From the sequence record SRR20825010_2783: DNA of 43,418 nucleotides; one strand, written 5' to 3'. Made by a program: the position numbers and the translations under genes. This document shows positions 7,576-31,455 of this stretch, piece after piece (within the stretch, counting starts at the first letter, position 1; the number at the start of each line of letters is the position of its first letter). The notes below the pieces were generated by a model. The model saw only the letters and a program-made list of their open reading frames with translations, was not told the DNA's origin and did no database searches.

Positions 7576-7621
7576 GATCTTCCCTTCACTCGACCTTAGA
7601 ATCACCGCTATAATATCTTCT

Positions 7622-7637
7622 TTGCAATCGATTGCAA
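7622..7637. promoter_or_regulatory. LacI-family operator between divergent GH65 and MFS genes
   Basis: Perfect palindrome TTGCAATCGATTGCAA, identical to 3419-3434. Confidence 0.85.
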
Positions 7638-7718
7638 TACTGATATATTCGCTTTCGGCTTCAGTAGAGATTGGGAAGATCCTACGATCACGCCATAGGG
7701 AAAGAACGGGGAGGTGTT

Positions 7719-8954: not shown

Positions 8955-8997
8955 CGCAAAGACTCAAAAGCAGCGCTCGAGCTCATACTTTTCAGCA

Positions 8998-9023
8998 AAA
9001 GCCGCCGAAAATTCGGCGGCTTT
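8998..9023. terminator. Intrinsic terminator (possibly bidirectional) after the MFS gene
   Basis: AAAGCCGCCGAA-AA-TTCGGCGGCTTT perfect stem flanked by A and T runs. Confidence 0.8.
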
Positions 9024-9130
9024 ATTGCATTCCGGCCTCAATTTATCCCGTAAAACCAATATTTTACGTCTAATAAGTGTATTCCTGTAACCAAGAGTTT
9101 CCTTACAGCCTAAAATGAACACGGGACACC

Positions 9131-9760
9131 ATGCCCGACAACCGCATTTTAGCTGAACAGGAGAAACTCATGTTAACTCATCAGATTGAGAAATCGCCGG
9201 AACAACAGATATACGAGCTCCGCTACACGGCTTATCTCGAAAAAGCTTCCATAAAGGAAAACAGCCAGCACGCTTTCATGGACCCCTATGATACGGCGCC
9301 AAACTGCCACTCCTTCATAGAATATATTGAAGGCTTCCCTGCTGGTTCCATCCGGGCCTGTATATATCAGCCCGAGCGCCCAGACCTGGGCATTCCGGCA
9401 CAGGAATTGTTTCCTGACGAGATGGAAGCCCACATCGGCTTTGAAAGCCGTGTGGTCGAATCAAACAAATTTGTTGTTCACCCAACATACCAGCACAAGG
9501 CCCTCCGGCTCAAATTCAAGCTTTTCAAGAATGTTTTCGACAAAGCTCTGGAAGTAGGTGCTGATTATATTGTGACCTCGCCCCGCGCGACACAGGTGGA
9601 TTTCTACAAGAGCATGCAGTTCGAGCCAATATCGGGGGTGAAGCGGTCGCTGGCCCTGGATTTCGATGTAGTTTTAATGGCTTGCAACCTTCGTGTTGCC
9701 CGGCAGCTCGTAAACGACGACCCGAAATATAAAACCTTACGACGCTTCGGCCTTTGCTAG
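9131..9760 (+). CDS. FeeM-like N-acyl amino acid synthase / LuxI-related GNAT acyltransferase
   Basis: IYELRYTAY..D.YD..GSIR..LGIPAQELF..VVESNKFVV..FYKSMQF pattern typical of FeeM/acyl-synthase folds. A strong AGGAG suggests the alternative start ATG 9170. Confidence 0.72.
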   Translation: MPDNRILAEQEKLMLTHQIEKSPEQQIYELRYTAYLEKASIKENSQHAFMDPYDTAPNCHSFIEYIEGFPAGSIRACIYQPERPDLGIPAQELFPDEMEAHIGFESRVVESNKFVVHPTYQHKALRLKFKLFKNVFDKALEVGADYIVTSPRATQVDFYKSMQFEPISGVKRSLALDFDVVLMACNLRVARQLVNDDPKYKTLRRFGLC

Positions 9761-9770
9761 GGACACGCGA

Positions 9771-9797
9771 AACCGGGGTCATTTTATGGCCCCGGTT
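9771..9797 (+). terminator. Stem-loop downstream of the synthase gene
   Basis: AACCGGGGTCAT-TTT-ATGGCCCCGGTT hairpin; weak U-tract. Confidence 0.5.
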
Positions 9798-9916
9798 AAC
9801 GCTTATTTCATCTAAAGATGCAAAATAACACGTGATACATGTAGCGCTTAAGAGTAAACCCTTATAGGATGTAATGTAGACAATTACTTAGCAATCACGC
9901 TGGAGGGAGACTACGA

Positions 9917-16439: not shown

Positions 16440-17531
16440 ATGGCATTGAACATTTCTTTTCATAAAACCAGAACAGCGGGCGTGGCTTTTCTCCTCGCCC
16501 TCACCGCCCTTGCCCCTGCGCCCGCCATGGCACAGGACATGCCGCAAATGCCACCAGCGCAGGTAGAAGTGGCCATCGCCGAAAAGCGCATGATGGCGCC
16601 AGAAATGCTGGTGTCCGGCACCGTGATCAGCGTCAACGACAGCCGCATTGCGAGCGAGGTGGAAGGCCCGCTGGCATGGATTGCCCAGGTTGGTACGGCG
16701 GTAAAGGAAGGCGACGTGATCGCGCGGATCGACAGCAGGTTACTTTCTGTGGCAGCACGGCGCGCGGAAGCCAACCTCAAGCGACTGCAGGCCAACCTTG
16801 TCTTTCGCGAGCAGGATGTGAAGCGCTATGAGGAACTGGCAAAAAGCGATAACACTTCGCAAGCCAAACTGCAGGAAGTCACCGCCCAGCGCGATATGCT
16901 GGCGCAGGAGATCGCCGACGCTGAAGCGACACTTGACCGTGCAAAAGGCGACCTCGCCCGTGCGGAAATCCGCGCGCCCTTCCCCGGCCACGTCGTGCAG
17001 CGGCTTGCGAACAAGGGCGAATATGTCAGTATCGCCGATCAGATTGCCCGCCTTGTCGACAATGAACATATCGAGGTTGTAATCCCTGCCCCGATCTCGA
17101 TCACGCCTTTCCTGAAAGCAGGCGATGAGGTTGCGGTTCATGACGGGCGCACAAGCCGCATGTTGCCCATCCGCGCCGTTGTGCCTGTGGGAGACATGGT
17201 CTCGCGCATGGTGGAAGTCCGCCTTACATCAAAACCGGAATACTGGATGGTAGGCACCCCTGTGAAGGTGAGCCTACCCAAGGAAGAAGCACAGGAAGCC
17301 GTAGCCGTGCCGCGCGATGCGCTTGTGCTCAAGGGGGACACCCAGTTCATCTATAAGGTAGGTGCCGACAACAAGGCCGAGCAGATAACTGCAGACATTC
17401 AGGCGGCGATCGGGCTTTGGGTTTCCCTCAAGCAGGGGCTTGAGGAAGGCGACAAAGTTGTGATCAGGGGTGGTGAACGGCTAATGCCGGGCCAGGATGT
17501 CATGATCAAAAGCGACCCCCAAAGCCGCTAG
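16440..17531 (+). CDS. RND periplasmic adaptor (membrane fusion protein)
   Basis: IASEVEG..VKEGDVIARID lipoyl half, coiled coil, IRAPFPG, VPRDAL, GLEEGDKVVIRG. Confidence 0.94.
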   Translation: MALNISFHKTRTAGVAFLLALTALAPAPAMAQDMPQMPPAQVEVAIAEKRMMAPEMLVSGTVISVNDSRIASEVEGPLAWIAQVGTAVKEGDVIARIDSRLLSVAARRAEANLKRLQANLVFREQDVKRYEELAKSDNTSQAKLQEVTAQRDMLAQEIADAEATLDRAKGDLARAEIRAPFPGHVVQRLANKGEYVSIADQIARLVDNEHIEVVIPAPISITPFLKAGDEVAVHDGRTSRMLPIRAVVPVGDMVSRMVEVRLTSKPEYWMVGTPVKVSLPKEEAQEAVAVPRDALVLKGDTQFIYKVGADNKAEQITADIQAAIGLWVSLKQGLEEGDKVVIRGGERLMPGQDVMIKSDPQSR

Positions 17532-17574
17532 AAAAAGCCGAAACCTGCAATCCATATGGGCTTGAAGTGATGGG

Positions 17575-18600
17575 CTACTTCAGGCCCATATTCTTTTTGA
17601 TCTTGGCAACGTCCTCGCGCAATTCCTTGAGAAGGGCGAAGTTCAGGTTCATCGCCTCTGTCACCCCTGCCACGGTAACCGGATCATTCTGAAGTGGTTC
17701 CGCTCCCTGACGTTTGGGCACCGAGTTCCAGCCTGGCATCGCAAAGTCCTTCAGGAAGGTGTGTTTGATCCAGTGGTTCTCGGCTTTGAAATGCTCCATG
17801 ATTTCACGGCGCGTTTCATCATCCAACGGGTGGTTTTGCGAGCTTCCCCGCGTGACGTGAAGGCTTGAGATGAAATCAGTCAGCTCATGGTCTTGCGCAT
17901 TTTTGAAAAGATAAGGGCTTTCCTTAAGCGCATTGCGCAGCTCATCTGTGACCGATGTATCTTCCTCCGGAAGCACGGCTGGCATGGTGTGCTGCGCCCC
18001 AATCGCGTGCCAGAAATCCGGCACGATATGCCCGCCTTCCAGCACTTTTGGCCAGGCGAGCCGCACCCGCATGCTTGAAGCACCAAACACATCCATGTAA
18101 GCGCTCAGTGTATCACGGTAAATGCCCTTGGCGGATGCTGCCAGAGACTGGCCTACAAAAACACGCAAGCCCATGCCGGTTTTGAACAGGCCACGGCGCC
18201 ACGTCTCCACCAACCAGTCGTCCTGCCGGGCAAAATAATAGATCACCTTGCAGTCAAAATAGGCCTTGGCGGCCTTCATCATGCCTGCCATCCCATCGGC
18301 ATTCAGGCTATCTGCCGCGAGTATCACCGCTTTCAATTTCTGGGCTTCTGCCTTGGCGCTCAGCGCCTGAAACTCAGTGCTAAGATCAACCGTCCTGCCA
18401 GCATTCAAATCTTCAAGTTTGCCTGCAAGAAACGCATCCGGGAAAGTGACCGCATCTTTCCGGCCCACCAAAGCGATTGACGCAGAGCAGAGGCCGATAC
18501 CTTCCGCTGCCAGCGCTGCGTGGTTTTCAGCCAGCGCTTGCCGGACCAGGCCGCTGCCGCAGGCCTCAAGCCCAATGTATAAATACAAAGTGGTGGTCAT
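17575..18600 (-). CDS. Hypothetical protein with degenerate sulfotransferase-like P-loop fold
   Basis: LYLYIGLEACGSG resembles L.LHIG..KTGST; KVIYYFARQD resembles the Y.RRQD motif; GGAG RBS before ATG 18600. Confidence 0.6.
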   Translation of the reverse strand: MTTTLYLYIGLEACGSGLVRQALAENHAALAAEGIGLCSASIALVGRKDAVTFPDAFLAGKLEDLNAGRTVDLSTEFQALSAKAEAQKLKAVILAADSLNADGMAGMMKAAKAYFDCKVIYYFARQDDWLVETWRRGLFKTGMGLRVFVGQSLAASAKGIYRDTLSAYMDVFGASSMRVRLAWPKVLEGGHIVPDFWHAIGAQHTMPAVLPEEDTSVTDELRNALKESPYLFKNAQDHELTDFISSLHVTRGSSQNHPLDDETRREIMEHFKAENHWIKHTFLKDFAMPGWNSVPKRQGAEPLQNDPVTVAGVTEAMNLNFALLKELREDVAKIKKNMGLK

Positions 18601-18834
18601 ATATCGCTCCGGTCCGGCACCAGCGTGTTCGGCAACCGGTGCGTATCCGGACCATATAGCCCCGCCCAAGCCGGCAAGGCAATGACCTATTCATCGTGGC
18701 TTCATGTGCATCAGGTGAAACTTCGTGCCAACAGCATCTGGCTGCGTGACAATTCGGTGAAGGAAATGCTACACCAAGATGCATTCAGCAACCGCTTTGG
18801 AAAATCGCGCCAACAGAAGCGCAAGGCCTGCCAC

Positions 18835-20874
18835 ATGTTCAACCCTCTCAGATCAATCAAGACCCTGCGCGACAAACAATTGATACGTCGTGCACGCGTG
18901 ATGTTTGAGCAAGGGGAAAGGGCGGCTGTAGTCAAGCTCATCGGCTCGCTCGCGGCAAAAGCGTCGCCCCGGCCAGATGCTGTGACCCTTGTGGTGCGCG
19001 CGCTTCGGCAGATGCAGGACCACACGGCAGCCAGCCGGTATCTCGCCCCTGCGCTCATCGCTTGGCCAAACCACACAGGCCTGTTGTTTCAGCAAGCATC
19101 TTTACTCCTTGAAATGGGCGACGCCCAAGCGGCCTTAGATTTATGCCACACCAAGGAAGCCGCACTTTCCAAACACGCTGGTTATAGCCGCCTGCTTGCA
19201 GCGTGCGAAAATGGTGCAAAACTGCAAGCTGTGCTTGGCACCACAAGCCTGATGGCTGAAATCAATGACCTTGAGAATTCAGGGAAATGGCCAAAGGTCG
19301 CTGATATCCTGTGGCCAATATGGCAGATGAAACATCCTTTCGATATCCCCACGCTCTATAGCAAGCTGGCCACCGGGCTCAGGCATGCCTTCCGCTTCAA
19401 AGACGCCCACGAGGTGATCAGGGGCGGGCTTGAAACGCTGGCTGACACCCATGAGCTTGAAGTTGCGCTTGGGGAACTGTTGATGGCGGAACGCAAGTGG
19501 GTGAGTGCAGCCAAACAGTGGCGCAAGGCTATTGAGCTGGCTCCAAACAACCCCGTGCCCGGTCTCTATATCCGGCTTGCCGACGCGTATTTGAACGGGG
19601 GTGAGAGTGCGCTGGCTAAAAGCGCTATTGAAGAAGGCTTGGGGCAGCATCCCGGTCAGGATTCCCTCCTCAAAAAACAGGTCCATGTGGCGTTCAACTC
19701 AAAAGCATGGGCGCAAGCGCTTGAGCGCGCCGAAGCACTCCCACCAGAGCTTAAAGGCGAACCTGCCATCCAGACTCTTATGGCTGAAGCCCGGTTTGAG
19801 CTTGCCTCCCCTATCGCAGAGCAAGCCTATGACCTGATTGGCACTGGCCAGCCTGATGAGGCCAAAGCGAAGTTCGCGGAGGCGCTTGATACCAGCGGCC
19901 TCAACGCCTCAAAAGCTGAATGGACGGAAGCTTTTTCTGCACTCTGTAATCTTTCCGCGCCACACACCGATGCTGAACCGTTAAGGCAATACCCGCCTGC
20001 GCTGCAGAAAATCATGGTCGCTGGCACGGGCTGGTCGGGTTCCGGGGCGCTTTATGATTTCTTCCGCGAATTTGAAGCGGTCGAGCCTGTGCATGGTGAG
20101 TTTCGTCATATTGAGCACAGCGAAGGCCTGCACGGCATCAAGCGCAAACGACCACTGGTGCCTCACGCGACCGCCTTTTTCGCAAAAATCGCATCAGGCC
20201 TTGCAACATACGATAACAAAAGCGGTTATATTCCGGTGCAGTCTGCGCGTTGGTGCGCGCTGAAAGACCAGCCCACCTATGCAGCCGCAACTGCGACCTT
20301 CCTCAAAACATACGGCGCGTTTGTGCATCACGGCAGGAAAGACCCGTCCAGCCTTCACGCCGCTACAAATGCGCTCATTGATGCCGTGATCGGCGCCATT
20401 ATGGGCCGCAAACCTGAGCATGAGAAAACCTTCCTGCTTGATAACGTTATCCACTGCCAGAATGTGGCCTTGAGCGAATATCTGGAAAACTTCCACTATT
20501 TCGCTGTGTTTCGTGACCCACGCGCGCAGTTCGCGGCCAATATGGCTGAAAACCCGAACTTCCACGGTGATGTGCAGCGTTTCATCAAAAGCTACCGTGA
20601 TTATCGCCTGAAATTCGAGAGACAACGAGGCACCACATCCCTCCGGGGCGGCGAAATTACTGTCGTCCAATTTGAGGAATTTGTGCTATCCGAAGACTAT
20701 CGCATGGCACTTGCGGATCTTTTGAACATTGGCCCGCACCTATTGAAACATAAGTATTTTGACCCCGACGTTTCCGGCCGCAACGTGCGACTTCATGACG
20801 CCTATGCCGACAAGGCTGCACTCAGGCAGATTGAGGAAGCCCTGCCGGAATTTCTGTGGGAAGAAAAACAGTAA
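18835..20874 (+). CDS. TPR-repeat protein with C-terminal sulfotransferase-like P-loop domain
   Basis: Helical TPR repeats (LGELLMAERKWVSAAKQWRKAIELAP), then VAGTGWSGSGALYDF, VFRDPRAQF, VQFEEF. Start uncertain (ORF open from 18625). Confidence 0.72.
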   Translation: MFNPLRSIKTLRDKQLIRRARVMFEQGERAAVVKLIGSLAAKASPRPDAVTLVVRALRQMQDHTAASRYLAPALIAWPNHTGLLFQQASLLLEMGDAQAALDLCHTKEAALSKHAGYSRLLAACENGAKLQAVLGTTSLMAEINDLENSGKWPKVADILWPIWQMKHPFDIPTLYSKLATGLRHAFRFKDAHEVIRGGLETLADTHELEVALGELLMAERKWVSAAKQWRKAIELAPNNPVPGLYIRLADAYLNGGESALAKSAIEEGLGQHPGQDSLLKKQVHVAFNSKAWAQALERAEALPPELKGEPAIQTLMAEARFELASPIAEQAYDLIGTGQPDEAKAKFAEALDTSGLNASKAEWTEAFSALCNLSAPHTDAEPLRQYPPALQKIMVAGTGWSGSGALYDFFREFEAVEPVHGEFRHIEHSEGLHGIKRKRPLVPHATAFFAKIASGLATYDNKSGYIPVQSARWCALKDQPTYAAATATFLKTYGAFVHHGRKDPSSLHAATNALIDAVIGAIMGRKPEHEKTFLLDNVIHCQNVALSEYLENFHYFAVFRDPRAQFAANMAENPNFHGDVQRFIKSYRDYRLKFERQRGTTSLRGGEITVVQFEEFVLSEDYRMALADLLNIGPHLLKHKYFDPDVSGRNVRLHDAYADKAALRQIEEALPEFLWEEKQ

Positions 20875-20911
20875 ATCCAGAACACAAAAAGACGATCAGG
20901 GACTATAGATA

Positions 20912-22210
20912 ATGCCGACAGTTTATATGGGGATGAGCGCAGACCTGCTGCACCCGGGCCACGTGAATATTATCAGGAAAGCGGCCGAGCTTGGTGATCT
21001 CACCATCGGCCTGCTGACCGACAGCGCCATCGCAAGTTACAAGCGCCTGCCCTTCCTCACCTATGAGCAGCGCAAAAGCGTGGTGGAAAACATCAAGGGC
21101 GTGGTGCGCGTTGTACCGCAGGAGACACTCAATTATGAGCCCAACCTGCGCACCTATAAACCCGAAATCGTTGTGCATGGGGACGACTGGAAAACAGGCG
21201 TGCAGCAAAGAACCCGCGCGCGGGTTATTGAAGTGCTGGCGGAATGGGGCGGCAAGCTGGTTGAGTTTCCCTATACCGAAGGCATTTCCTCAACCCAGCT
21301 TCACGGCAGCATCAAGGAAGTGGGCACCACCCCGGACATCCGCCGCCGCACGCTTAAACGCCTGATCGACGCCAAGCCTATCGTGCGCATCATGGAAGCC
21401 CACAACGGCATCTCCGGCCTTATTGTTGAGCATGCCAAGGCTTCCAGCGAGGGCCGCACGCTTGAGTTTGACGGCATGTGGGGCAGCAGCCTCACGGAAT
21501 CCACCGTGAAGGGCAAACCCGATATCGAAGTGGTGGATATCTCCACCCGGCTCTCAACCCTGAATGAGATTTTTGAGGTCACCACCAAGCCGCTGATTTT
21601 TGATGGCGACACTGGCGGCAAGCCCGAACATTTTGCCTTCACGGTGCGCTCGCTGGAACGTCTCGGCGTCTCCGCCGTTATTATCGAGGACAAGGTCGGC
21701 TTGAAGAAAAATTCCCTGTTCGGTAATGACGTGGCACAGCAGCAAGCCAGCATAGAAGATTTCTGCGACAAGATCCGCACCGGCAAGGCTTCTCAGGTTA
21801 CCCGTGACTTCATGATCATCGCGCGCATTGAGAGCCTGATCCTTGATCAAGGACTTGAGGATGCCATCACGCGGGCAAAAGCCTATCTGGAGGCCGGAGC
21901 AGACGGCATCATGATCCACAGCCGCCAGAAGTCTCCTGACGAGATTTTCGCTTTCTGCGAGATGTATGCAGCACTGGACACAGACAAACCGCTCGTGGTG
22001 GTGCCTTCAAGCTTCAATGCGGTTTATGAGCATGAACTGCAGGAACGCGGCGTGAGAATCGTTATATATGCCAACCAGCTTCTGCGCGCGGCGTACCCCA
22101 GCATGATGAAGGTGGCTGAAAGCATCCTCACCCATGGAAGGTCGGCGGAAAGCAGCGAGCTTTGCATGCCAATCAAGGAAATCCTCGACCTGATACCCGG
22201 GACACGCTGA
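20912..22210 (+). CDS. aepX: Phosphoenolpyruvate mutase with N-terminal cytidylyltransferase domain
   Basis: N-terminal DLLHPGH (HxGH) and GISST CyTase motifs; PepM-specific [10 protein letters not shown] (EDKx5NS); DGDTGG. Confidence 0.97.
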
Positions 22211-23337
22211 TGATTGAACCGCAGGAATTTTATACAGAGCTGCAACGGGCCGGGGTGTCGTTTTTCACCGGTGTACCAGATTCACTGCTCAAAAGTTTTT
22301 GCGCCTATGTCACCGACACCATGCCGTCGGAGCAGCATATCATTGCCGCGAATGAGGGTGGCGCTGTAGGCATCGCCCTTGGCTATCATATGGCCACAGG
22401 GCAGGTACCGCTCGTCTACATGCAGAACTCAGGCCTTGGCAATATCGTCAACCCTGTGCTCTCGCTGGCGGACAGGGAAGTATACGCGACCCCCATGCTG
22501 CTGCTTATCGGCTGGCGCGGCCAACCCGGTGTGAAAGACGAACCACAGCACGTGAAACAGGGTCGTGTGATGTGCGCCATGCTGGATGCCATGGAAATCC
22601 CCTTCGCCAACATCGGGCATGACGGTGCGAGCGCCAAGGCGGCGCTGGATGGTGCGCTCAAGTATATTTCCGAACATAACGCACCTTATGCGTTGCTGGT
22701 CGAAAAAGGCGTCTTCGCTGACTATAAACTCGCCAGCACCGTTGAAGACCTGCCCATGACACGGGAAGATGCCATCAAGGCTGTCATCAGCACCCTACCG
22801 ATTGATGCCGCCGTGGTTGGCACAACAGGCATGGCATCACGCGAGCTGTTTGAAGCGCGCGCGCACAAAGGCACCGGCCATCACCGGGATTTCCTTACCG
22901 TTGGTGGTATGGGGCACGCGTCGCAAATCGCCCTTGGCATCGCGCTTAACCAGCCTGACCGCACCGTTGTGTGCCTTGATGGTGACGGCGCAGCGCTCAT
23001 GCATATGGGGGCCATGGCCATTATCGCGAACCAGGCACCAGATAACTTCATTCATGTTGTGATCAACAACGGGGTACACGGCTCTGTGGGCGGCCAACCA
23101 ACCGTGGCGCGCGATATCACCATGCCCAGCATAGCCGAAGGCTGCGGCTATAAGGCTGTGCATAGTGTGGATACAGAGGCCGCGCTTGTTGCGCTGCTGG
23201 GTGGCGGCCTGCCTTGCCCCGCCTTCATTGAGGTCAATGTGAAACAGGGGCACCGTGCAGACCTCGGGCGGCCCACGTCCAGCCCACAGGAGAACAAGGC
23301 TGAGTTTATGCGCTTCCTGAAAGGCAGCCAAAACTGA
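22210..23337 (+). CDS. aepY: Phosphonopyruvate decarboxylase
   Basis: FTGVPDSLLK, ANEGGA, QNSGLGN, DEPQH, TTGMASREL, DGDGAALMHMG; TGATG coupling to pepM. Confidence 0.96.
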   Translation: MIEPQEFYTELQRAGVSFFTGVPDSLLKSFCAYVTDTMPSEQHIIAANEGGAVGIALGYHMATGQVPLVYMQNSGLGNIVNPVLSLADREVYATPMLLLIGWRGQPGVKDEPQHVKQGRVMCAMLDAMEIPFANIGHDGASAKAALDGALKYISEHNAPYALLVEKGVFADYKLASTVEDLPMTREDAIKAVISTLPIDAAVVGTTGMASRELFEARAHKGTGHHRDFLTVGGMGHASQIALGIALNQPDRTVVCLDGDGAALMHMGAMAIIANQAPDNFIHVVINNGVHGSVGGQPTVARDITMPSIAEGCGYKAVHSVDTEAALVALLGGGLPCPAFIEVNVKQGHRADLGRPTSSPQENKAEFMRFLKGSQN

Positions 23338-24437
23338 TGACAGACCAGAAGCAAATATCATGGGCAGAGCTGGGACGGGATTACCTGAGCCACGCCCGTG
23401 GTATATTTCTGGTTGCTGGCACCGGGTCTTTCTCTGCCTCCGGCGCTAAAGCCAAGTTCAGCGCCGTGAGTGGTGACATTCCAGCGGTGCGCTTCTCGGA
23501 CTTTACAGAAAACCCGCAGTTGAGCGAGATCAGCGCGGGTGTAAGGCTTTTTGAGAAAAGTGGTTGCGACGTTATTGTGGCCATTGGTGGCGGCAGCTCA
23601 ATTGATATTGCCAAATCTGTCCATATTCTCGCGGGCCACGCGACCAGCGAGCATGCAGCCATACTCAGGGGCGAAAAAGACCTCGAACCCGCAGTGGCAG
23701 GGCGCGCGTTTATCGCCGTACCCACGACCTTTGGCACGGGATCGGAAAGCACGCAGTTTGCAGCCGTATATATCGGGGATGCCAAATACTCGCTTTCGCA
23801 CCCATGCGGTCTGCCGGGCGCCTATGTGTTAGACCCGGCCCTTGCGCTATCCGCACCCGCCGTCATTCGCGCGAGCACCGCGATTGATGCACTTTGCCAG
23901 GCCATCGAATCTTACTGGGCGAAAGATGGCAGCAAGGAAAGCCGCGCTTACGCAGCCAAAGCCATCCCGCTGCTTCGGGATAATATTGAGGCTTATGTGA
24001 GCAGCGATGACTTGGATGTTGCCGCTAACATGGCAGAGGCCGCCAACCTGTCTGGCCGCGCCATCAACATCTCAAAAACCACAGCGCCGCACGCGCTCTC
24101 TTACGGTATCACCAAGCGATACGGCGTGGCCCATGGTCAGGCCGTGGCGCTTACCCTGCCTGCCTTTTTTACCCTGAACGCAGACCGCGGGGACGCTGAC
24201 ACCAAGGCCCGCATGCGAGAGATATTTGACCTTCTTGGCGTCAAGGACGGTGCAGCGGCAAAAGTCTGGTTTACCGGTCTTCTGACTGCAACCGGCCTGA
24301 AGACACGCCTGCTCGATATCACCTCCGTCAGCGCAGATGACGCGGAAGAGCTTGCCGCCCAAGTCAACCTTGAGCGGCTTGGCAATCACCCGGTGACCCT
24401 TACAAGCAACGACCTGATCGCAGCGCTGCTGGCCTAG
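23337..24437 (+). CDS. Phosphonoacetaldehyde reductase (iron-containing alcohol dehydrogenase, PhpC/FomC-like)
   Basis: AIGGGSSIDIAK, PTTFGTGSE, DALCQAIESYW, INISKTTAPHALSY, HGQAV; translationally coupled to ppd. Confidence 0.9.
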   Translation: MTDQKQISWAELGRDYLSHARGIFLVAGTGSFSASGAKAKFSAVSGDIPAVRFSDFTENPQLSEISAGVRLFEKSGCDVIVAIGGGSSIDIAKSVHILAGHATSEHAAILRGEKDLEPAVAGRAFIAVPTTFGTGSESTQFAAVYIGDAKYSLSHPCGLPGAYVLDPALALSAPAVIRASTAIDALCQAIESYWAKDGSKESRAYAAKAIPLLRDNIEAYVSSDDLDVAANMAEAANLSGRAINISKTTAPHALSYGITKRYGVAHGQAVALTLPAFFTLNADRGDADTKARMREIFDLLGVKDGAAAKVWFTGLLTATGLKTRLLDITSVSADDAEELAAQVNLERLGNHPVTLTSNDLIAALLA

Positions 24438-24521
24438 GCCAGCTTCAATTATACTGAGTTGTCATACAAGCTAAACATGGGCGCTGTAGCCAAAGGCCGA
24501 TTATCGTTTGCAGGAAAGCCG

Positions 24522-25703
24522 ATGCCGCAGCACCCAAGCACCACCAATATTCGCACAGCGCTTCGCACGCTATGGCCGCTTTTTGCGGCTGTTGCTGCAT
24601 TTGTCGCAGCGGGTAGCCTGCAAAACGCACTGGTAGCCTATGACCTCGCGCAGGCGGGTGCGTCTTCCCTGATGACGGGCGTTGTGATGTCTGCCTATTT
24701 TGCCGGTTTTTTGCTGGGCGCTTATACAGCACCACGGCTCGCGGCCCGGCTTGACCTTGCACGGCTCTTTCTCATCATCACCGCCCTTTATGCACCGTGT
24801 ACGGCGCTGTTTGCGCTCGCAGGCAATATGCTGCCGGGGCTGATAGTATTGCAGATGGCCACCGGGTTCGGTATCGCCTGCCAATATGTGGTGATTGAAA
24901 GTTGGCTCAACCTTGAAGCTAACAGCAGCTACCGCGCGCGGCTCTTTGGCACCTATATGTTTTTCTGGTTCTTTGGTGCTGGTGGCGGCCCGCTCCTTAT
25001 TGGGCTGCACCCTATAGGGCATGAACCCTTGTTCCTGCTCGCAGCCGGGCTTGTCGCCTTTTCTGGCCTTATGCTCCATCGGCTCAAAGATAAAGCCTGG
25101 CGGGGGGCTATTTCGCTCCCCATGCCGCTCAGGCCGGTGCTGGAGGCCAGCCCTTCCGGTTTTTGCGCAACGCTGCTGGTGGGGGTAAGTTTCGGTGCCG
25201 TGCTGGGCCTAACCGCCGCCTACGGGCAGCACAACGGCCTGAGCCCGACTGAAACGTCGTTTTTTGTTGCAGCGTTCATCTTTGGGGGTGGTCTGACCCA
25301 ATATATGGCGGGCGCGCTTTCTGACCGGCTGGACCGTCGCCTTGTGTTGACAGTCTTCACCTTCCTCGCCGCGCTCAGCGCGCTGCTTCTGCTTAACGCA
25401 AATACCAAGCTGGGCGTGATGGCATGCGCCACCGCGTTTGGCGCGTTCGCCCTGCCCATCTATGCACTTGCTGTTGCGCAAATTCAGGACAGCGTGGCAG
25501 AGGACAGGCGCATCGCCACCAGCGGCGGGCTTTTGATCCTGAACGGGTTCGGGTCCTTTATCGGGCCGCTTGTGGTTGGCGGCATGAGTGGCTGGTGGGG
25601 CGACGCAGCGCTTTTCATCACCCTTGCGCTTGTGCATTCAGCTATCGGCGGCATTTACCTCTGCCGTTTGCTTGTTCGTCGGTTGCGGCCTGTGGCCGTC
25701 TAG
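24522..25703 (+). CDS. MFS transporter (YcaD-like)
   Basis: MSAYFAGFLLG, YVVIESWLN, GALSDRLDRR motifs; about 12 TM. Start ATG 24522 follows AGGA (ORF open from 24459). Confidence 0.88.
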   Translation: MPQHPSTTNIRTALRTLWPLFAAVAAFVAAGSLQNALVAYDLAQAGASSLMTGVVMSAYFAGFLLGAYTAPRLAARLDLARLFLIITALYAPCTALFALAGNMLPGLIVLQMATGFGIACQYVVIESWLNLEANSSYRARLFGTYMFFWFFGAGGGPLLIGLHPIGHEPLFLLAAGLVAFSGLMLHRLKDKAWRGAISLPMPLRPVLEASPSGFCATLLVGVSFGAVLGLTAAYGQHNGLSPTETSFFVAAFIFGGGLTQYMAGALSDRLDRRLVLTVFTFLAALSALLLLNANTKLGVMACATAFGAFALPIYALAVAQIQDSVAEDRRIATSGGLLILNGFGSFIGPLVVGGMSGWWGDAALFITLALVHSAIGGIYLCRLLVRRLRPVAV

Positions 25704-25768
25704 CGATTGACCCTTTCATGAAAAATATGGCAGCACTACAGGACCCCTAATTTCGGAGTAGATGTTTT

Positions 25769-26353
25769 ATGCCCAAGCTCGGCATGCAGCCCATCAGGCG
25801 GCAGCAATTGATTGACGCGACGATCCGCACCATCGCTCGTGTGGGATACTCTGAAACAACCGTGAGCCGGATTGCAAAAGAAGCCGGGCTTTCCGCCGGT
25901 ATTATCTCGCATTATTTTGGGGGCAAGCAGGCGCTTCTTGAAGCCAGCATGGCGCGGGTATTGTTTGAGCTGCATGATGCTTTCCTCAAACACCTTGAGG
26001 AGGCCACGAGCCCCCGCGAGCGGCTATCTGCGATCATCGATACAAATTTTGAGGATGACCAGTACAAACCCGAAATTGTGCGGGCGTGGCTTTCCTTCTG
26101 GGCGCAAGTGCCCTTCTCACCGGAGCTGAAACGCCTGCAGGCCATTTATAACCGACGCCTGATTTCAAACCTCGCGCATGAGCTTCGCCAGATTGTGCCC
26201 GTGGACGCCGCGCGCGACGGCGCGGAGATATTCGCCTCCCTCATCGACGGCTTCTGGTTGCGCTCTACCATGGCCGAGGCAGCACCGAACTTGCCCGAAA
26301 TCAGACGGCAGATCGAACAGAGCATCGACCGTTATATCCGCGCCATGGCCTAG
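25769..26353 (+). CDS. betI: Choline-responsive TetR-family repressor BetI
   Basis: MPKLGMQPIRRQQLI..GIISHYFGGK..WLSFW..RLQAIYNRRLISNL..LIDGFWLR, characteristic of BetI. Confidence 0.95.
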   Translation: MPKLGMQPIRRQQLIDATIRTIARVGYSETTVSRIAKEAGLSAGIISHYFGGKQALLEASMARVLFELHDAFLKHLEEATSPRERLSAIIDTNFEDDQYKPEIVRAWLSFWAQVPFSPELKRLQAIYNRRLISNLAHELRQIVPVDAARDGAEIFASLIDGFWLRSTMAEAAPNLPEIRRQIEQSIDRYIRAMA

Positions 26354-26521
26354 CCACATACCGCGCCACACCTCCGCCGCAAAAACGCGCACACTCGCGC
26401 CGCACTTTCACGCACACTTTCGCCACACATGCCACACTTCCCTGAGTGCTAAAGCCCGCAAAAGCTACCGCGCCAAGCCTCACACGCCAAGGCTGGTAGC
26501 CCACGGCAAAGTTTTGCAGAT

Positions 26522-26550
26522 GTCTCATATTTCCGTCACCAAACCGTAAT
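26522..26550 (+). promoter_or_regulatory. Putative Pho box (PhoB site), three units with 11-bp period
   Basis: GTCTCAT-ATTT-CCGTCAC-CAAA-CCGTAAT compared with consensus CTGTCAT-N4-CTGTCAY; upstream of the TBDR-phoD operon. Confidence 0.6.
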
Positions 26551-26579
26551 GAATTCAGCGCATTAAGGCTGCGGCAGAC

Positions 26580-26607
26580 TTTTTATTGAATGATTGTTCA
26601 ATAAAAA
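26580..26607. promoter_or_regulatory. Putative BetI operator
   Basis: TTTTTATTGAA-TGATTG-TTCAATAAAAA with perfect 11-bp arms; ATTGA-N8-TCAAT fits BetI-type sites; betI lies just upstream. Confidence 0.8.
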
Positions 26608-26643
26608 GGGGCATCAATTTTATCATTTCAAGGGCGCAGAATT

Positions 26644-28980
26644 ATGACAGTTAACATGACAAAAAAAATGCTACTGGGGGCGTGCAGTCTTTTTGCCGTT
26701 TCCGCTGTAGCACACTCGGAGGAAACTGCTGCGGACGCCTATGCGGATGACGCTGGCGTTGAAGAAATCGTTGTTTCTGCAGAGAAAACCACCTTCGCGA
26801 ACAACGCAACAGACAGCATCATGCGAGACCAGGAGCCTGATGCAGCAAGCGTGCTTTCCGTGATCGATAACCTGCCGGGCATTTTTGTTTCTGAAGGCGG
26901 TACCTTCGGCTCTGATGACTGGTCCACCACCCTGTCCATCCGTGGTTTCACTGTAAGTCTTTCAGAACAACAGGTTGGCATGACAATCGACGGTCTGCCA
27001 AACGGTAACTCCAACTATGGCGGCGGCGCAAAAGCCAACCGCTATATCGATAGCGAAAACCTCGCGCGCGCTGTGGTATCGCAGGGCACTGCCGATATCG
27101 CCTCCCCTTCCCACGAGGCGCTTGGCGGCACCATCGATTTTGTTACCAGCAACCCATTTGAAGAACAGCGTTTCTGGGCCAGCCTGAGCGTGGGTGAAAA
27201 CAACGCACAGCGGTATTTCTTCCGCTATGACACCGGTGAAATTGCTTCCGGTACAAGGGCTTACCTCAGCTACTCCAACACCACAAACGATGCCTGGATT
27301 GGTGATGCTGGCGGCACAACACGGGACCACTTCGCTGCAAAAATTGTGTCTGAGCAGGACGAATGGACCTTCACCGGTCGCCTGTCATGGGACGATACCC
27401 ACGAGAATAACTACCAGCGTATCTCGCTCGCCCAGTTTGAAGAAGACCCGGATTGGGACCGCCTGACAGACACCATCACCGGCATTCCGTATGTTGATCA
27501 GGTTTATCGTCCGGGCTGGGGCACGCTGCGCGAGAACTGGTTTGCCTATGTAAAAGCGGAATATGAGGGCGATAATTTCGACTTCACCGTTGCGCCTTAC
27601 TATCACAAAAACGAAGGTCGCGGCGACTGGATCCCGCCTTACCTTGTTGCAGTAGCCGGTGGTGACACACAATCGAACGGCACCATTTTTGGCGGAAGCG
27701 CAGCGGCTTCATATACTTATACGGACTCGAACGGCACGCCACTTGCGCCAATCGACGGCTGCACAGCCACCCTCACCTTCCCTTATGGCGGGGGCGCACC
27801 AGCCAACAACCCGGCATGTTATCAGGCAGGTGCTATCCCTGTTGGTTCATACCGTCACACCCACTACGCCAAAACCCGTATCGGCGCGACGGCTGACGCC
27901 GCATACCGCATTGGCGAGATGAACACGCTTCGTGCTGGTATCTGGTGGGAAAATTCAGACCGTGACGAATCGCGCGACTGGCACAAAGTCATTGATTCTA
28001 CGGTAGGAATCGAATTTGACGAGACAGCCTACTGGCGTCAGTATGACCGAAACTTCGTAACCGACACCTTCATGGCTTATGCAGAAGACACGTTTGAGCT
28101 GGGTGATCTGACCCTGCGCGGCGGCGTGAAAAAGTTCTTCGTTGACCTTGAGCGGAACGACAATTTCGGCTCTGAAGCCACACAGTCGCTCGAGTCCAAT
28201 TCTGATCTTCTGTTCACCGCCGGTGCGATCTATAACCTGACAGACGACTTTGAAGTGTTCGCCGGTTTCTCGCAAAACTTCGCGGCGATCAAGGACGGTA
28301 TCATCGAAGGTCAGGCAAGTGCGACAAACCCGAACATCCCTGACCTTGAAGGCGAAACCGCCGACAACTACGACATGGGGTTCCGCTTCAATAATGACTG
28401 GCTGCGCGCGACGCTCACCGGTTATTACATCAAGTTCAACAACCGCATCACCTTTGTATCCGAAGGCGATCCGGTTGGCGGTGTTGACTACCTTGAAGAA
28501 GGTGAAGGCACATACCTGAACGTGGGCGGCATCAAGTCTAAAGGTATTGAGGCCAGCATCTCTGCTGACTTTGCCAGCTACTGGAACCTCTATAGCTCCC
28601 TCACCATCAACAGTTCTGAGTATACCGAAACCACAGCAGAGGTTGTTGAAGGCAACAAAGTGGCCCTCGCTCCCGAGTTCCAACTTGTTGGCACGCTCAG
28701 CTACTTCAAGGACGGTGTGCGGGCAGGTGTTTCCGCCAAGCATGTTGGCGAACGTTATGGCGATTTTGCCAATACGCAGGAGCTGCCATCTTTCACGCTG
28801 GTTGATGCATGGGTTGGTTACACCGTGGACGAGAATGTCATCCCCGGTATCCAGACCATTGATGTGAGCCTGAACATCACCAACCTCACCAACAAGAACT
28901 ACCTTGGTGGTGGTACGCCGGGCTCATATTTCATCGGCGCTGATCGCCAGGTCACCGCAAACCTGACGCTCAAGTTCTAA
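26644..28980 (+). CDS. TonB-dependent receptor
   Basis: Signal peptide, EEIVVSA TonB box, LSIRGF..TIDGLP plug, NITNLTNKNY, terminal LKF. Confidence 0.93.
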   Translation: MTVNMTKKMLLGACSLFAVSAVAHSEETAADAYADDAGVEEIVVSAEKTTFANNATDSIMRDQEPDAASVLSVIDNLPGIFVSEGGTFGSDDWSTTLSIRGFTVSLSEQQVGMTIDGLPNGNSNYGGGAKANRYIDSENLARAVVSQGTADIASPSHEALGGTIDFVTSNPFEEQRFWASLSVGENNAQRYFFRYDTGEIASGTRAYLSYSNTTNDAWIGDAGGTTRDHFAAKIVSEQDEWTFTGRLSWDDTHENNYQRISLAQFEEDPDWDRLTDTITGIPYVDQVYRPGWGTLRENWFAYVKAEYEGDNFDFTVAPYYHKNEGRGDWIPPYLVAVAGGDTQSNGTIFGGSAAASYTYTDSNGTPLAPIDGCTATLTFPYGGGAPANNPACYQAGAIPVGSYRHTHYAKTRIGATADAAYRIGEMNTLRAGIWWENSDRDESRDWHKVIDSTVGIEFDETAYWRQYDRNFVTDTFMAYAEDTFELGDLTLRGGVKKFFVDLERNDNFGSEATQSLESNSDLLFTAGAIYNLTDDFEVFAGFSQNFAAIKDGIIEGQASATNPNIPDLEGETADNYDMGFRFNNDWLRATLTGYYIKFNNRITFVSEGDPVGGVDYLEEGEGTYLNVGGIKSKGIEASISADFASYWNLYSSLTINSSEYTETTAEVVEGNKVALAPEFQLVGTLSYFKDGVRAGVSAKHVGERYGDFANTQELPSFTLVDAWVGYTVDENVIPGIQTIDVSLNITNLTNKNYLGGGTPGSYFIGADRQVTANLTLKF

Positions 28981-28994
28981 GTTTCGAAGCAACT

Positions 28995-29024
28995 GGTGGG
29001 TGGCTTAGGCCGCCCGCCCTTTTT
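28995..29024 (+). terminator. Intercistronic hairpin with U-tract between TBDR and phoD
   Basis: GGTGGGTGGC-TTAG-GCCGCCCGCC followed by CTTTTT. Confidence 0.55.
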
Positions 29025-29039
29025 CCCGGAGACCCCAAC

Positions 29040-30140
29040 ATGATCACGCGCCGCACCAGCATGAAACTCATGGCTGCCACTGCAGTTACGACGGCTATGG
29101 CCCCCAATCTTTTGGCGGCGAGCACCAAAAAATCCACAACAGAAACGGGCGCAAGTGTCTCACGCATTCTGTTTGGCTCCTGCGCCAATCAAGACAAGGC
29201 CCAGCCGATCTGGGCGCCTATCAACGCACTTGAGCCAGACCTGTTTGTCTTTCTGGGTGATAATATCTACGGCGACACGCGTGACATGAGCGTTTTGGCT
29301 GCTAAATATCAGAAATTCGCCGCAGTCGAAGGTTTCAAAACGCTTCGTGACAATACGCCTGTTATCGCCACATGGGATGACCATGATTATGGCGAGAATG
29401 ATGCGGGAGTTGAGTATCCTGAAAAGGAAAAATCCAAAGAGCTGTTTCTGAACTTCTGGAATGAGCCCAAGGGTAGCGCCCGGCGCCGCGATGACGACGG
29501 CATCTACACTTCATATACCTATGGCGAAGCGGGCCAGCGCACGCAGGTGATCCTGCTTGACTTAAGGTGGAACCGCACACCACTCACCCACGTGAGCCAA
29601 GCCGCAGCCAAACGCCGCGACCAAATGGGTTTTGGCCCTTATCTGCCTACTAGGGCAGAGGGCGCTACCATGTTGGGCGAAAAACAGTGGGCGTGGCTTG
29701 AAGGTGAACTCAGGAAACCCGCTGACCTACGCATTATCGGCTCCAGCCTGCAGTTTATTTCAACCTTTCCCGGCTGGGAAGCATGGAGCCTGTTCCCCAC
29801 TGAGCGCAAACGCATGATAGACCTGATCCGCAAGACGAATGCTCAGGGTGTACTGTTCATCAGCGGTGATACTCACTGGGCGGAGATATCGCGTCAGGAC
29901 GACCAACATACGCCCTACCCCGTGTATGACTTCACCTCAAGCGGCCTGACGGAAACCTGGCACAACATAAGCCCGAACGCCTACCGGCTGCCGGGCTGTA
30001 TGTTCACCAAGGCAAACTTTGGCATCATAGAGGTGGACTGGAATGTGCCTGACCCTCATATCGTGCTGCAGGCCAGAGAGGTGACAGGGAACCCCGTGTT
30101 TGAGAAGTCTCTGCTGCTGAGCCACCTTTCCTCCCGGTGA
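29040..30140 (+). CDS. phoD: Alkaline phosphatase D family phosphoesterase, Tat-exported
   Basis: TRRTSMK Tat signal; FGSC, LGDNIYGD, WDDHD, LDLR, SGDTH motifs. Confidence 0.93.
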   Translation: MITRRTSMKLMAATAVTTAMAPNLLAASTKKSTTETGASVSRILFGSCANQDKAQPIWAPINALEPDLFVFLGDNIYGDTRDMSVLAAKYQKFAAVEGFKTLRDNTPVIATWDDHDYGENDAGVEYPEKEKSKELFLNFWNEPKGSARRRDDDGIYTSYTYGEAGQRTQVILLDLRWNRTPLTHVSQAAAKRRDQMGFGPYLPTRAEGATMLGEKQWAWLEGELRKPADLRIIGSSLQFISTFPGWEAWSLFPTERKRMIDLIRKTNAQGVLFISGDTHWAEISRQDDQHTPYPVYDFTSSGLTETWHNISPNAYRLPGCMFTKANFGIIEVDWNVPDPHIVLQAREVTGNPVFEKSLLLSHLSSR

Positions 30141-30171
30141 CGCCGGTTCAGTTGATAAACAAGCAGAGCAG

Positions 30172-30198
30172 AAGGGATCAGGTCATGCCTGATCCCTT
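30172..30198. terminator. Terminator hairpin between convergent phosphoesterase genes
   Basis: AAGGGATCAGG-TCATG-CCTGATCCCTT perfect 11-bp stem. Confidence 0.75.
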
Positions 30199-30210
30199 TC
30201 AGCATTCTGA

Positions 30211-31356
30211 TTACTGGCCGATCATGCCATCAATCGGTTCACCGGCTTTCAGGCTTTCATGGCTTCCCTCATAGTCATAGCCAAGCAATTTCGCAGCCGT
30301 CGCTGCTACTTGAGTGAGCGCAACCGGTTCACCGCCTGAAATCTCACCAAGCACAGGAGTATCCGGGCCAACAGCTGCCATCCAGATAGCGTCATCACCC
30401 TTAAAGTTGCTCACCGCTTTGGTTCCGTCCTCGCGGGTATAAGGGAAACGGCCATGATGCTTCCATGCTTCAAGGCTATCGCTGCCCCGGCCATGGTCTG
30501 TGGTGATAAGCAGGGTGGTTTTCCCTCTATAACGAGCGTCACTTTCAAGCCACGCCCATAATTCAGCAATAGCCTGATCACTGCGGTGTGCTGCATGCGC
30601 ATATTGGTCATAGTGCCCGTCATGCGCAAAATCATCTGTTTCGCCGAGAGAGATATAAACGAACTTCATCTTCTCGCTTGCGAGTGCCGCGCGCGCGAAC
30701 CCCATCGTGAAAGCATCAAGCCGCACCGTGTCCCACGGGCTTGGGATTTTTTCCTGCAGGTTATTAAGCAAGCCAACACTCTGGCCACGGCCATCATAGG
30801 CTTCAAAACCTGCATTCACCGGCACGCCAGAGCGTTCTTCATTTATAATGTAGGGAAACACGTCCCACGACCCGAAAGCAGCAACCTTGCCCGCGTTCTC
30901 CGGCATCGCATTCAACCACTCAAGGACCGTGCGGTTGGGGTTGGGAAACTTGTCATTGCTGGTAATGCGTGCGTCATCCGCAAAGCCTGTGAGGATCTCG
31001 CTATAGCCGGGGTAGGAGAAATGATAGGCGTTAGTGAGTGTGCCAACGCTGCCTTTGTCCCTGTTACCGTATAGCTGCCCGTGGGCCGCAAGCGTGTTCC
31101 AGAAAAATGGCATCAAAGCTGAACGCGAAGCCTCCGGTGCTTCAAGCCCGAACTTGGTCTTGAAGGCATCATGTGTTTTTTTGTGAGCGATATAGGCTTC
31201 CTGATCAAAGAAGGCTTTATCCGCGCCCCTGAACACTTCCTGCCACCTAAGGCCATCAATGGTAATCAGAACCACTGTTTCTGTTTTGGTAGGTGCAGCA
31301 TGGGCTGATGTCACAGCCGCAAAAATAAACATGAATGACGCCAGAAAGGTGCGCAC
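30211..31356 (-). CDS. Secreted alkaline-phosphatase-superfamily phosphoesterase
   Basis: Signal peptide from GTG 31356 (GGGAG RBS); metal and nucleophile motifs ITIDGLR, FSYPGY, GETDDFAH, TTDHGR. Confidence 0.85.
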   Translation of the reverse strand: MRTFLASFMFIFAAVTSAHAAPTKTETVVLITIDGLRWQEVFRGADKAFFDQEAYIAHKKTHDAFKTKFGLEAPEASRSALMPFFWNTLAAHGQLYGNRDKGSVGTLTNAYHFSYPGYSEILTGFADDARITSNDKFPNPNRTVLEWLNAMPENAGKVAAFGSWDVFPYIINEERSGVPVNAGFEAYDGRGQSVGLLNNLQEKIPSPWDTVRLDAFTMGFARAALASEKMKFVYISLGETDDFAHDGHYDQYAHAAHRSDQAIAELWAWLESDARYRGKTTLLITTDHGRGSDSLEAWKHHGRFPYTREDGTKAVSNFKGDDAIWMAAVGPDTPVLGEISGGEPVALTQVAATAAKLLGYDYEGSHESLKAGEPIDGMIGQ

Positions 31357-31455
31357 AGGTTTCTCCCTTGATCCAATTTCGCTACCCACCGGATAGCATA
31401 TAGCTTTCAAGCGGGACTGTGCGCCTTTCTGATGAAAGTTTTTTGGCAAAACAAA

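Follow-up and report, generated by a model that had tools for sequence, protein, structure and literature searches.

How a phosphonate that has been activated with CMP is attached to its acceptor is the least understood step in the decoration of cell surfaces with phosphonates, and this is the question raised by an operon in sequence record SRR20825010_2783. The window, by which we mean the whole stretch of 43,418 nucleotides that was analysed, is G000:C1:1051246-1094663 of a complete 4.18-Mb genome; the nearest relative in the genome collection is a Kordiimonas metagenome-assembled genome (MAG; locus L015) and the host is a marine-type alphaproteobacterium. Five plus-strand genes at 18835-25703, with spacings of 37, -1, -1, and 22 bases, make up one cassette and code, in this order, for a 679-aa protein with tetratricopeptide repeats (TPR), a 432-aa fusion of a cytidylyltransferase (CyTase) with phosphoenolpyruvate (PEP) mutase, PepM, the phosphonopyruvate decarboxylase Ppd, an Fe-dependent alcohol dehydrogenase (ADH), and a transporter of the major facilitator superfamily (MFS). 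An earlier sequence-only reading of this DNA had recognized an operon for the synthesis of 2-hydroxyethylphosphonate (HEP) that lacks a canonical transferase, and had left its end product open. We propose, giving it about an even chance on the strength of comparative genomics and conserved residues, that the first protein of the cassette is itself a CMP-HEP:acceptor hydroxyethylphosphonyl transferase whose acceptor is probably a glycan.

The enzymes that would supply HEP are readily assigned. The fusion gene (20912-22210, plus strand) is of the Fom1 type, with the CyTase at about 20915-21322 and PepM at about 21353-22204, and Pfam places PF01467 (CTP_transf_like) at residues 9-129 (48.1 bits) and PF13714 (PEP_mutase) at residues 148-406. 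PepM matches TIGR02320 with 411.9 bits (cut-off 319.55) over profile positions 1-283 of 284 and the solved chain 5unc_A with 148.8 bits. Its translation contains the catalytic motif EDKxxxxxNS, which is the criterion that separates true PepM from other enzymes of the isocitrate lyase family (Rice et al. 2019, PMC6697681; this and the other papers are cited throughout for parts of their text only). Ppd (22210-23337, plus strand, with the open reading frame (ORF) starting at 22162) matches TIGR03297 with 488.7 bits (cut-off 312.5) over profile positions 1-360 of 360. The ADH (23337-24437, plus strand) matches PF00465 with 109.6 bits and PF25137 with 82 bits, and its top NCBIfam model is the phosphonate-linked TIGR03405 with 175.3 bits, below the cut-off of 423.7. 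An ADH comes after Ppd in 12 of the 17 related genome loci listed and HEP dehydrogenases exist (PMC13576164); the ADH here is presumed to be a phosphonoacetaldehyde reductase that yields HEP. The PepM stop codon shares TGATG (22208-22212) with an in-frame start codon of Ppd, the overlap of Ppd with the ADH is a single base, and the three genes are translationally coupled. It is because of this coupling to PepM and Ppd that a catabolic role for the ADH was rejected. By family membership, PepM would convert PEP to phosphonopyruvate, Ppd would convert phosphonopyruvate to phosphonoacetaldehyde, and the ADH would convert this to HEP, and the sequence-only reading, which had taken this route as established, is supported here by PepM and Ppd scores above the curated cut-offs.

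The motifs of nucleotidyltransferases are HxGH and an RTxGISTT-like sequence, and the CyTase domain carries HPGH and YTEGISST. Over residues 2-137 it matches the solved 160-residue chain 5x3d_A with 229.9 bits (E 5e-67); this chain was deposited as 'phosphoenolpyruvate phosphomutase' and we take it to be the CyTase domain of Fom1. The Fom1 CyTase domain forms CMP-HEP from CTP and HEP (Rice et al. 2019, PMC6697681). We infer on good grounds that the fused CyTase in the window would likewise convert HEP and CTP to CMP-HEP, and both the similarity to 5x3d_A and the cited part of PMC6697681 support the earlier claim that it can.

No conventional transferase accompanies these enzymes. A Pfam scan of the 30 ORFs in the window, that is, every ORF that reaches 150 aa and does not lie in the shadow of a longer one, found no LicD, Glyphos_transf (TagF), CDP-OH_P_transf, glycosyltransferase, or Aminotran_5 domain, which confirms that no canonical transferase and no transaminase for 2-aminoethylphosphonate (AEP) lies in the window, as had been noticed before. 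Pfam and NCBIfam scans of the window ORFs likewise found no radical S-adenosylmethionine (SAM), HEPD/MpnS-like, ATP-grasp, or nonribosomal peptide synthetase (NRPS) tailoring enzymes. The whole genome has no TagF and nothing that passes the PhnW cut-off, three CDP-OH transferases are found at distant places (0.15, 0.67, and 1.75 Mb), and there is one partial LicD match of 32-33 bits, above the cut-off, that covers profile positions 4-37 of 227. This match lies in a 699-aa protein of F5/8-type-C plus partial LicD make-up (G000:C1:3041654-3043753), 2 Mb from the operon. The sequence-only reading had allowed for the case that standard transferases elsewhere account for a known phosphonoglycan; with the partial LicD-like protein, which is in a capsule locus, such a transferase may exist.

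The gene that precedes the fusion, at 18835-20874 (plus strand), encodes the 679-aa TPR/sulfotransferase-like protein from the chosen ATG, the ORF being open back to a GTG at 18625, and 37 bp (20875-20911) separate its stop codon from the PepM start. The N-terminal TPR region (residues 1-384; 18835-19986, plus strand) has matches to PF07719, PF13428, PF14559, and PF13432 within residues 125-351 and is presumed to be a module that binds the acceptor or a partner. The 295-aa C-terminal domain (residues 385-679; 19987-20874, plus strand) has no Pfam family even at E <= 10, and its homologues carry many different N-termini. Its AlphaFold model, built with an alignment of 24 homologues, has a pLDDT of 92.2 and a pTM of 0.90, and with this model Foldseek places tyrosylprotein sulfotransferases (TPST) first among the structures in the PDB (TPST2, E 7e-5, TM 0.53-0.56). 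VIA-align aligns 230 residues to TPST1 with a Z of 14.9 and an rmsd of 3.9, and every one of its 50 best rows is a sulfotransferase. Thus, the sequence-only reading, which had called the product of this co-oriented gene with its 37-bp gap a TPR/sulfotransferase-fold protein, was right about the fold. When the family is compared by sequence, the profile from a domain-only alignment of 17 sequences (A2) finds no solved sulfotransferase, its best match being a ribosomal protein at E 0.18; the first family alignment (A1) was discarded, as it still held TPR columns and matched only TPR proteins among solved structures. As a comparator we used P0029, a canonical Sulfotransfer_3 protein from a related locus (PF13469, 103.9 bits) with the loop GVGRSGTSL. 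Against P0029, hhalign gives the family a probability of 54% and pairs RDPRAQFAA with RDPRDVLLS, and three family members marginally pass the PF13469 cut-off with 27.9, 31.2, and 29.2 bits. The link to sulfotransferases rests on the fold, on these marginal PF13469 matches of relatives, and on the hhalign match.

The residues that this family keeps, and those that it has replaced, were counted in a profile alignment of 149 family representatives. Invariant or nearly so are G13, S17, G18, and A21 of the loop (GxGWSGSGA), E38, N153, R176-D177-P178-R179, F229-E230-x-F232, R239, S263, and N266, among which S17, G18, E38, R176, D177, R179, and S263 are present in all 149 members; the window protein has the loop GTGWSGSGA, Glu38, Asn153, RDPR, and FEEF. 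A Lys or Arg in the loop, which binds the 5'-phosphosulfate, and a Ser, which binds the 3'-phosphate, are the hallmark contacts of sulfotransferases with 3'-phosphoadenosine 5'-phosphosulfate (PAPS). Where P0029 has its loop Arg, Trp stands in 135 of 149 members, Tyr or Phe in 8, and Lys or Arg in only 3. Where P0029 has the Ser, 102 members have Ala, 29 have Ser, and the rest have Asp (14), Thr (3), or Glu (1); the window protein has Trp and Ala at these two places. The domain family is an undescribed and phylogenetically scattered branch of the sulfotransferase fold in which two PAPS hallmarks are lost.

What ties this branch to phosphonates is the company that it keeps. A profile search against 1.84 billion cluster representatives (clusters at 50% identity) returned 2166 proteins at E <= 1e-3, 1466 at 1e-10, and 308 at 1e-30. 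Two samples of loci with a family member were compared, at least 17 on genome contigs and at least 23, including two near-duplicates, in metagenomes. The 17 genome loci span about ten phyla, with hosts from Kordiimonas, Spirochaetia (two), Accumulibacter, Thermoplasmatales (two), Ilumatobacter, Methanoculleus, Rhodobacteraceae, Desulfovibrionales, Rhodobacter, Alkalispirochaeta, Orrella, Izimaplasma, Desulfurivibrio, Lysobacter, and Eubacteriales; the groups represented are Alpha-, Beta-, and Gammaproteobacteria, Spirochaetia, Desulfobacterota, Actinomycetota, Izimaplasma, Thermoplasmatales, and Methanoculleus. By tblastn with the window proteins, the CyTase-PepM fusion is found at most 10 kb away in 13 of the 17 genome loci listed, with 62-96% identity and with L027 truncated by the contig end. 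Eleven of the loci have Ppd and 12 the ADH, and in most loci the sulfotransferase-like gene adjoins the fusion or the ADH and is co-oriented with it. PepM is missing from locus L022, where an ADH stands at the contig end, and from L025, L028, and L030. Three of these genomes, those of L022, L028, and L030, have PepM above the cut-off elsewhere (385-403 bits), which brings PepM to 16 of the 17 carrier genomes listed, and none above the cut-off was found in the genome of L025. For comparison, PepM is present in 36 of 400 other sampled Alphaproteobacteria and, above the cut-off, in 1 of 14 control genomes. Of the 23 metagenome loci listed, 8 carry the fusion, and in 3 others Ppd and/or the ADH stands at the contig end. 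One family member, P0139 (810 aa), has a nearly complete Ppd (TIGR03297, 305 bits, positions 2-358 of 360; cut-off 312.5) in front of the domain at 509-806, and this fusion is strong evidence for a shared phosphonate pathway. Fusion, synteny, and co-occurrence in genomes tie the family to CyTase-PepM/Ppd/ADH cassettes.

The neighbours also tell which branch of phosphonate metabolism is concerned. Among the 101 neighbour ORFs scanned there is no class-V aminotransferase, the family of AEP transaminase, and therefore the family accompanies the HEP (hydroxyl) branch and not the AEP branch. Two metagenome loci, L037 (4468-8934) and L046 (836-4692), have no PepM and carry a stand-alone PF01467 enzyme of 141-142 aa one gene away, which suggests that some family members use another CDP-activated head group; the common denominator of the family loci is a cytidylyltransferase. 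In both loci an unassigned protein of about 265 aa comes after the stand-alone cytidylyltransferase, and L037 also has a LicD. The remaining 10 metagenome loci have neither the fusion, Ppd, or the ADH nor such a cytidylyltransferase, and they include four contigs below 5 kb and three very weak matches. In a Spirochaetia chromosome (L016:10923-15329) the CyTase-PepM fusion has neither Ppd nor ADH nearby and is flanked by ORFs of 521 and 476 aa that have no Pfam match; this is possibly a different branch from phosphonopyruvate.

As for the acceptor, the domain is fused, in the 30 long members scanned, to TPR, GT2, GT4, the rhamnosyltransferase family, FkbM methyltransferase, alginate lyase, heparinase II/III, and DUF1796, and LamG occurs in homologues. 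Family neighbours among the same 101 ORFs are glycosyltransferases, NeuB, flippases, and ABC exporters. The glycan-related fusion partners point to glycans as the likely acceptors. In the TPR-fused members the acceptor could instead be a protein, which would amount to O-phosphonylation by a relative of tyrosylprotein sulfotransferases.

Based on comparative genomics and the residue pattern, we propose that the sulfotransferase-fold domain of the TPR protein would move the hydroxyethylphosphonyl group from CMP-HEP to an acceptor hydroxyl with release of CMP, a phosphonyl counterpart of the reaction in which a sulfuryl group is transferred from PAPS and PAP (adenosine 3',5'-bisphosphate) is set free. 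In this proposal the anhydride would be bound by the P-loop (GWSGSGA), the invariant Glu38 would be the base for the hydroxyl of the acceptor, and the TPR module would help in recognizing that acceptor or some partner. The most likely acceptor throughout the family would be a glycan; in this organism it may be a Kps-type capsule whose genes lie at 3.03-3.08 Mb, or alternatively a small molecule that the adjacent MFS transporter exports. That the family as a whole has switched its donor from PAPS to CMP-activated phosphonates and CDP-alcohols, and esterifies HEP to polysaccharides in bacteria and archaea, is a more tentative proposal for which we put the chances slightly below even.

The sulfotransferase fold itself suggests another explanation, namely that the upstream protein is a divergent PAPS-dependent sulfotransferase that sulfates the hydroxyl of HEP, whether free, CMP-bound, or attached, or a HEP-bearing glycan, while another enzyme transfers HEP. 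This we consider unlikely. It agrees with the fold, with Z up to 14.9, with the retention of RDPR and of an acidic residue about 22 positions past the loop, and with the three members marginally above the PF13469 cut-off, and the clusters that the family accompanies are all of the ADH type, whose product retains a free OH. The RDPR Arg binds the 3'-phosphate in PAPS enzymes and is kept in all 149 members, and for this reason a 3'-phosphorylated or some other donor may be used; the Trp-for-Lys change marks a difference from known sulfotransferases and does not tell the donor. The genome also makes PAPS, as it has APS (adenosine 5'-phosphosulfate) kinase, CysD, and CysNC. These three points, the Arg, the silence of the Trp on the donor, and the PAPS supply, weigh against our proposal of a CMP-HEP donor as well. 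What argues against sulfation is that the loop Lys/Arg is kept in 3 and the 3'-phosphate Ser in 29 of 149 members, that the window domain has no Pfam match, and that the family profile retrieves no solved sulfotransferase. Moreover, 7 of the 11 carrier genomes, that of the window included, have a full-length APS kinase and in the other 4 none was found, although genome completeness was not reported, a caveat that tells against the CMP-HEP donor. One of these four is a single 3.87-Mb chromosome record and two are isolates: the Spirochaetia chromosome record and Methanoculleus methanifontis have only a 21-bit match to the P-loop end of APS kinase, and Orrella and a Desulfovibrionales MAG have no APS kinase match. 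The missing APS kinase counts against PAPS dependence and does not prove the point. We know of no sulfated phosphonate.

Two further explanations do without a transfer to a glycan by the upstream protein. In one, CMP-HEP is used by the LicD-like protein at 3041654-3043753 and the TPR/sulfotransferase-like protein is a scaffold, a regulator, or a carrier of CMP-HEP. LicD-type enzymes have been proposed for phosphonyl tailoring (Rice et al. 2019, PMC6697681), the match is above its cut-off and stands among Kdo (3-deoxy-D-manno-octulosonic acid), KpsC/S-like, KpsMT-like, glycosyltransferase, and sulfotransferase genes, and TPR domains often mediate contacts between proteins. We nevertheless regard this as quite improbable, as the match spans a seventh of the profile and lies 2 Mb off, polar residues that are invariant in 149 of 149 members fit a catalytic site better than a scaffold, and most family loci have neither LicD nor TagF. 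In the other, the cassette makes a soluble phosphonate, either free HEP or HEP that the sulfotransferase-like enzyme has esterified to a small alcohol, which the MFS transporter would export, and CMP-HEP is a transient intermediate as in the biosynthesis of fosfomycin, where cytidylylation is transient in the Fom1 pathway (Cho et al. 2017, cited in PMC6697681). The 43-kb window has no glycan gene among the 30 ORFs scanned and the MFS gene, which is kept in L015, follows the ADH by 22 bp; since these two facts also weigh against a glycan as the acceptor, the acceptor in this organism is a guess. The window holds no antibiotic-type tailoring enzyme, however, and the MFS gene is absent from the other 16 genome loci listed, where the family sits in glycan loci, which makes a soluble product a rather poor prospect. 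If the acceptor is small, this explanation overlaps with transfer by the upstream protein.

Transfer from CMP-HEP by the sulfotransferase-fold protein has also to be weighed against several loci in which other enzymes are at hand. LicD stands beside the family in L021 (158 bits), L028, and L037, with a weak match in L024, and TagF with its own TagD-like CyTase in L029, and in these loci another enzyme could do the transfer; canonical sulfotransferases are present in L017 and L025. In addition, the family is absent from the 400 other sampled Alphaproteobacteria (0 at E <= 1e-10), and 2 of these 400 have the same CyTase-PepM fusion without it. One such locus (L094) has Ppd, a class-V aminotransferase, and an NTP-transferase::LicD (LicD-PntC) fusion. 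In the other (L095, genome G389, 7146-11969) the genes after Ppd and ADH encode a dioxygenase of the PhyH type and an APS-kinase-like P-loop protein of 178 aa, and there is no recognizable transferase within 10 kb of the cassette. The family is therefore one of several solutions and not a general feature of Fom1-type cassettes.

The closest known counterpart of the cassette is the fosfomycin pathway of Streptomyces, which has the same three enzymes (Fom1 CyTase-PepM, Fom2 Ppd, and FomC Fe-ADH) and the same fusion architecture. It differs in having Fom3, a radical SAM methyltransferase, FomD, and Fom4, equivalents of which were not found in the window, and therefore CMP-HEP here is not en route to fosfomycin. 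In Pnt clusters the order PepM-Ppd-AEPT-PntC, where AEPT is AEP transaminase, is joined by LicD-like or CDP-alcohol transferases (PMC6697681; PMC8942020). Common to these clusters and the cassette are a phosphonate that is made, CMP-activated, and passed to an acceptor, and a nucleotidyltransferase that is fused to PepM; the window differs in its HEP branch, in a nucleotidyltransferase of PF01467 instead of PF12804, and in a candidate transferase of the sulfotransferase fold. The candidate shares with TPST and Sulfotransfer_3 (PF13469) proteins the fold, the place of the P-loop, the RDPR aligned by hhalign, and a conserved Glu after the loop, and differs from them in the Trp for the loop Lys/Arg, in having mostly Ala for the Ser, in the lack of a Pfam match for the window domain, and in its linkage to CyTase-PepM. 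HEP-bearing polysaccharides have been described from two actinomycetes and from marine dissolved organic matter (Yu et al. 2014; Repeta et al. 2016, via PMC13576164), and HEP esterified to polysaccharide is the likely class of end product here. In the parts of PMC6697681 and PMC8942020 cited here, AEP clusters are assigned LicD-like or CDP-alcohol transferases, and no transferase is named for HEP clusters like the present one. The word 'sulfotransferase' is absent from the main text of Rice et al. 2019 (PMC6697681), Li and Horsman 2022 (PMC8942020), and Acker 2022, as far as these sources are covered, and a literature search, with subscription-only papers outside its scope, found no report of a HEP transferase or of a connection between sulfotransferase-like proteins and PepM clusters. 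With a confident model, few invariant residues, a compact operon, and a complete genome, the candidate enzyme is defined well enough to make the question testable. If the proposal is true, a fold for sulfuryl transfer has been re-used for phosphonyl transfer, and the family would be the missing enzyme that esterifies HEP to polysaccharides and thus one way in which the HEP esters in marine dissolved organic matter arise.

The gene that is divergently transcribed from the cassette has a paralogue in a possible acceptor pathway. This gene, which like the MFS gene had not figured in the sequence-only reading, lies at 17575-18600 (minus strand) and encodes a 341-aa protein (P0003 family) with a probable sulfotransferase-like/P-loop fold and a degenerate loop, LEACGSG. 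It has no Pfam or NCBIfam match; an Atlas feature search groups it (0.95-0.96) with clusters auto-named 'sulfotransferase family protein', its AlphaFold2 model (pLDDT 68.9) is good only for residues 1-180, and Foldseek returns sulfotransferases mixed with P-loop kinases at TM 0.35-0.46. BLASTP finds no similarity between the two sulfotransferase-like proteins of the window (E 1.2). A homologue is syntenic with the TPR gene in three close relatives and in L015, and the protein is possibly a second modifying enzyme of the cassette. As a general partner of such cassettes it was rejected: among the 17 related loci phmmer finds a homologue only in L015, and among 400 sampled genomes there is one weak match. 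A paralogue with 40% identity, P0170 (G000:C1:3069364-3070398), keeps a PKCGSTT loop and has glycosyltransferase genes on both sides; it belongs to a locus of some 50 kb at 3.03-3.08 Mb (G000:C1:3030001-3082000). This locus has genes for Kdo synthesis and KpsC/S-, KpsF-, KpsMT- (ABC-2 transporter), and KpsD-like/Poly_export genes, together with glycosyltransferases, canonical sulfotransferases, CysD, CysNC, the LicD-like protein, flagellin, and RTX proteins. It is probably a locus for a sulfated capsule and as such a candidate acceptor pathway, and a capsule that is assembled in the cytoplasm would be a plausible acceptor for a cytoplasmic enzyme that depends on CMP-HEP.

At the other end of the cassette, the MFS gene (24459-25703, plus strand; PF07690, 98 bits) is co-oriented with the ADH. 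Its product is 75% identical to that of L015, and tblastn gave no match in the other 16 genome loci listed; it may export a small HEP product or be unrelated. A scan of 17400-26800 gave counts of promoters and terminators near the shuffle expectation (5 vs 4.2 and 17 vs 10.4), and no convincing terminator was seen between the genes.

Further along, the region 25769-31449 has a BetI-type repressor (TIGR03384, 234 bits, above the cut-off) without betA or betB, followed by a TonB-dependent receptor and a PhoD-like phosphatase, with an alkaline-phosphatase-superfamily protein on the opposite strand. It looks like a phosphoester-scavenging set, and its gene order recurs in L015. At 9131-9760 a gene for a FeeM-type N-acyl amino acid synthase, unrelated to the HEP operon, stands beside a sensor kinase gene.

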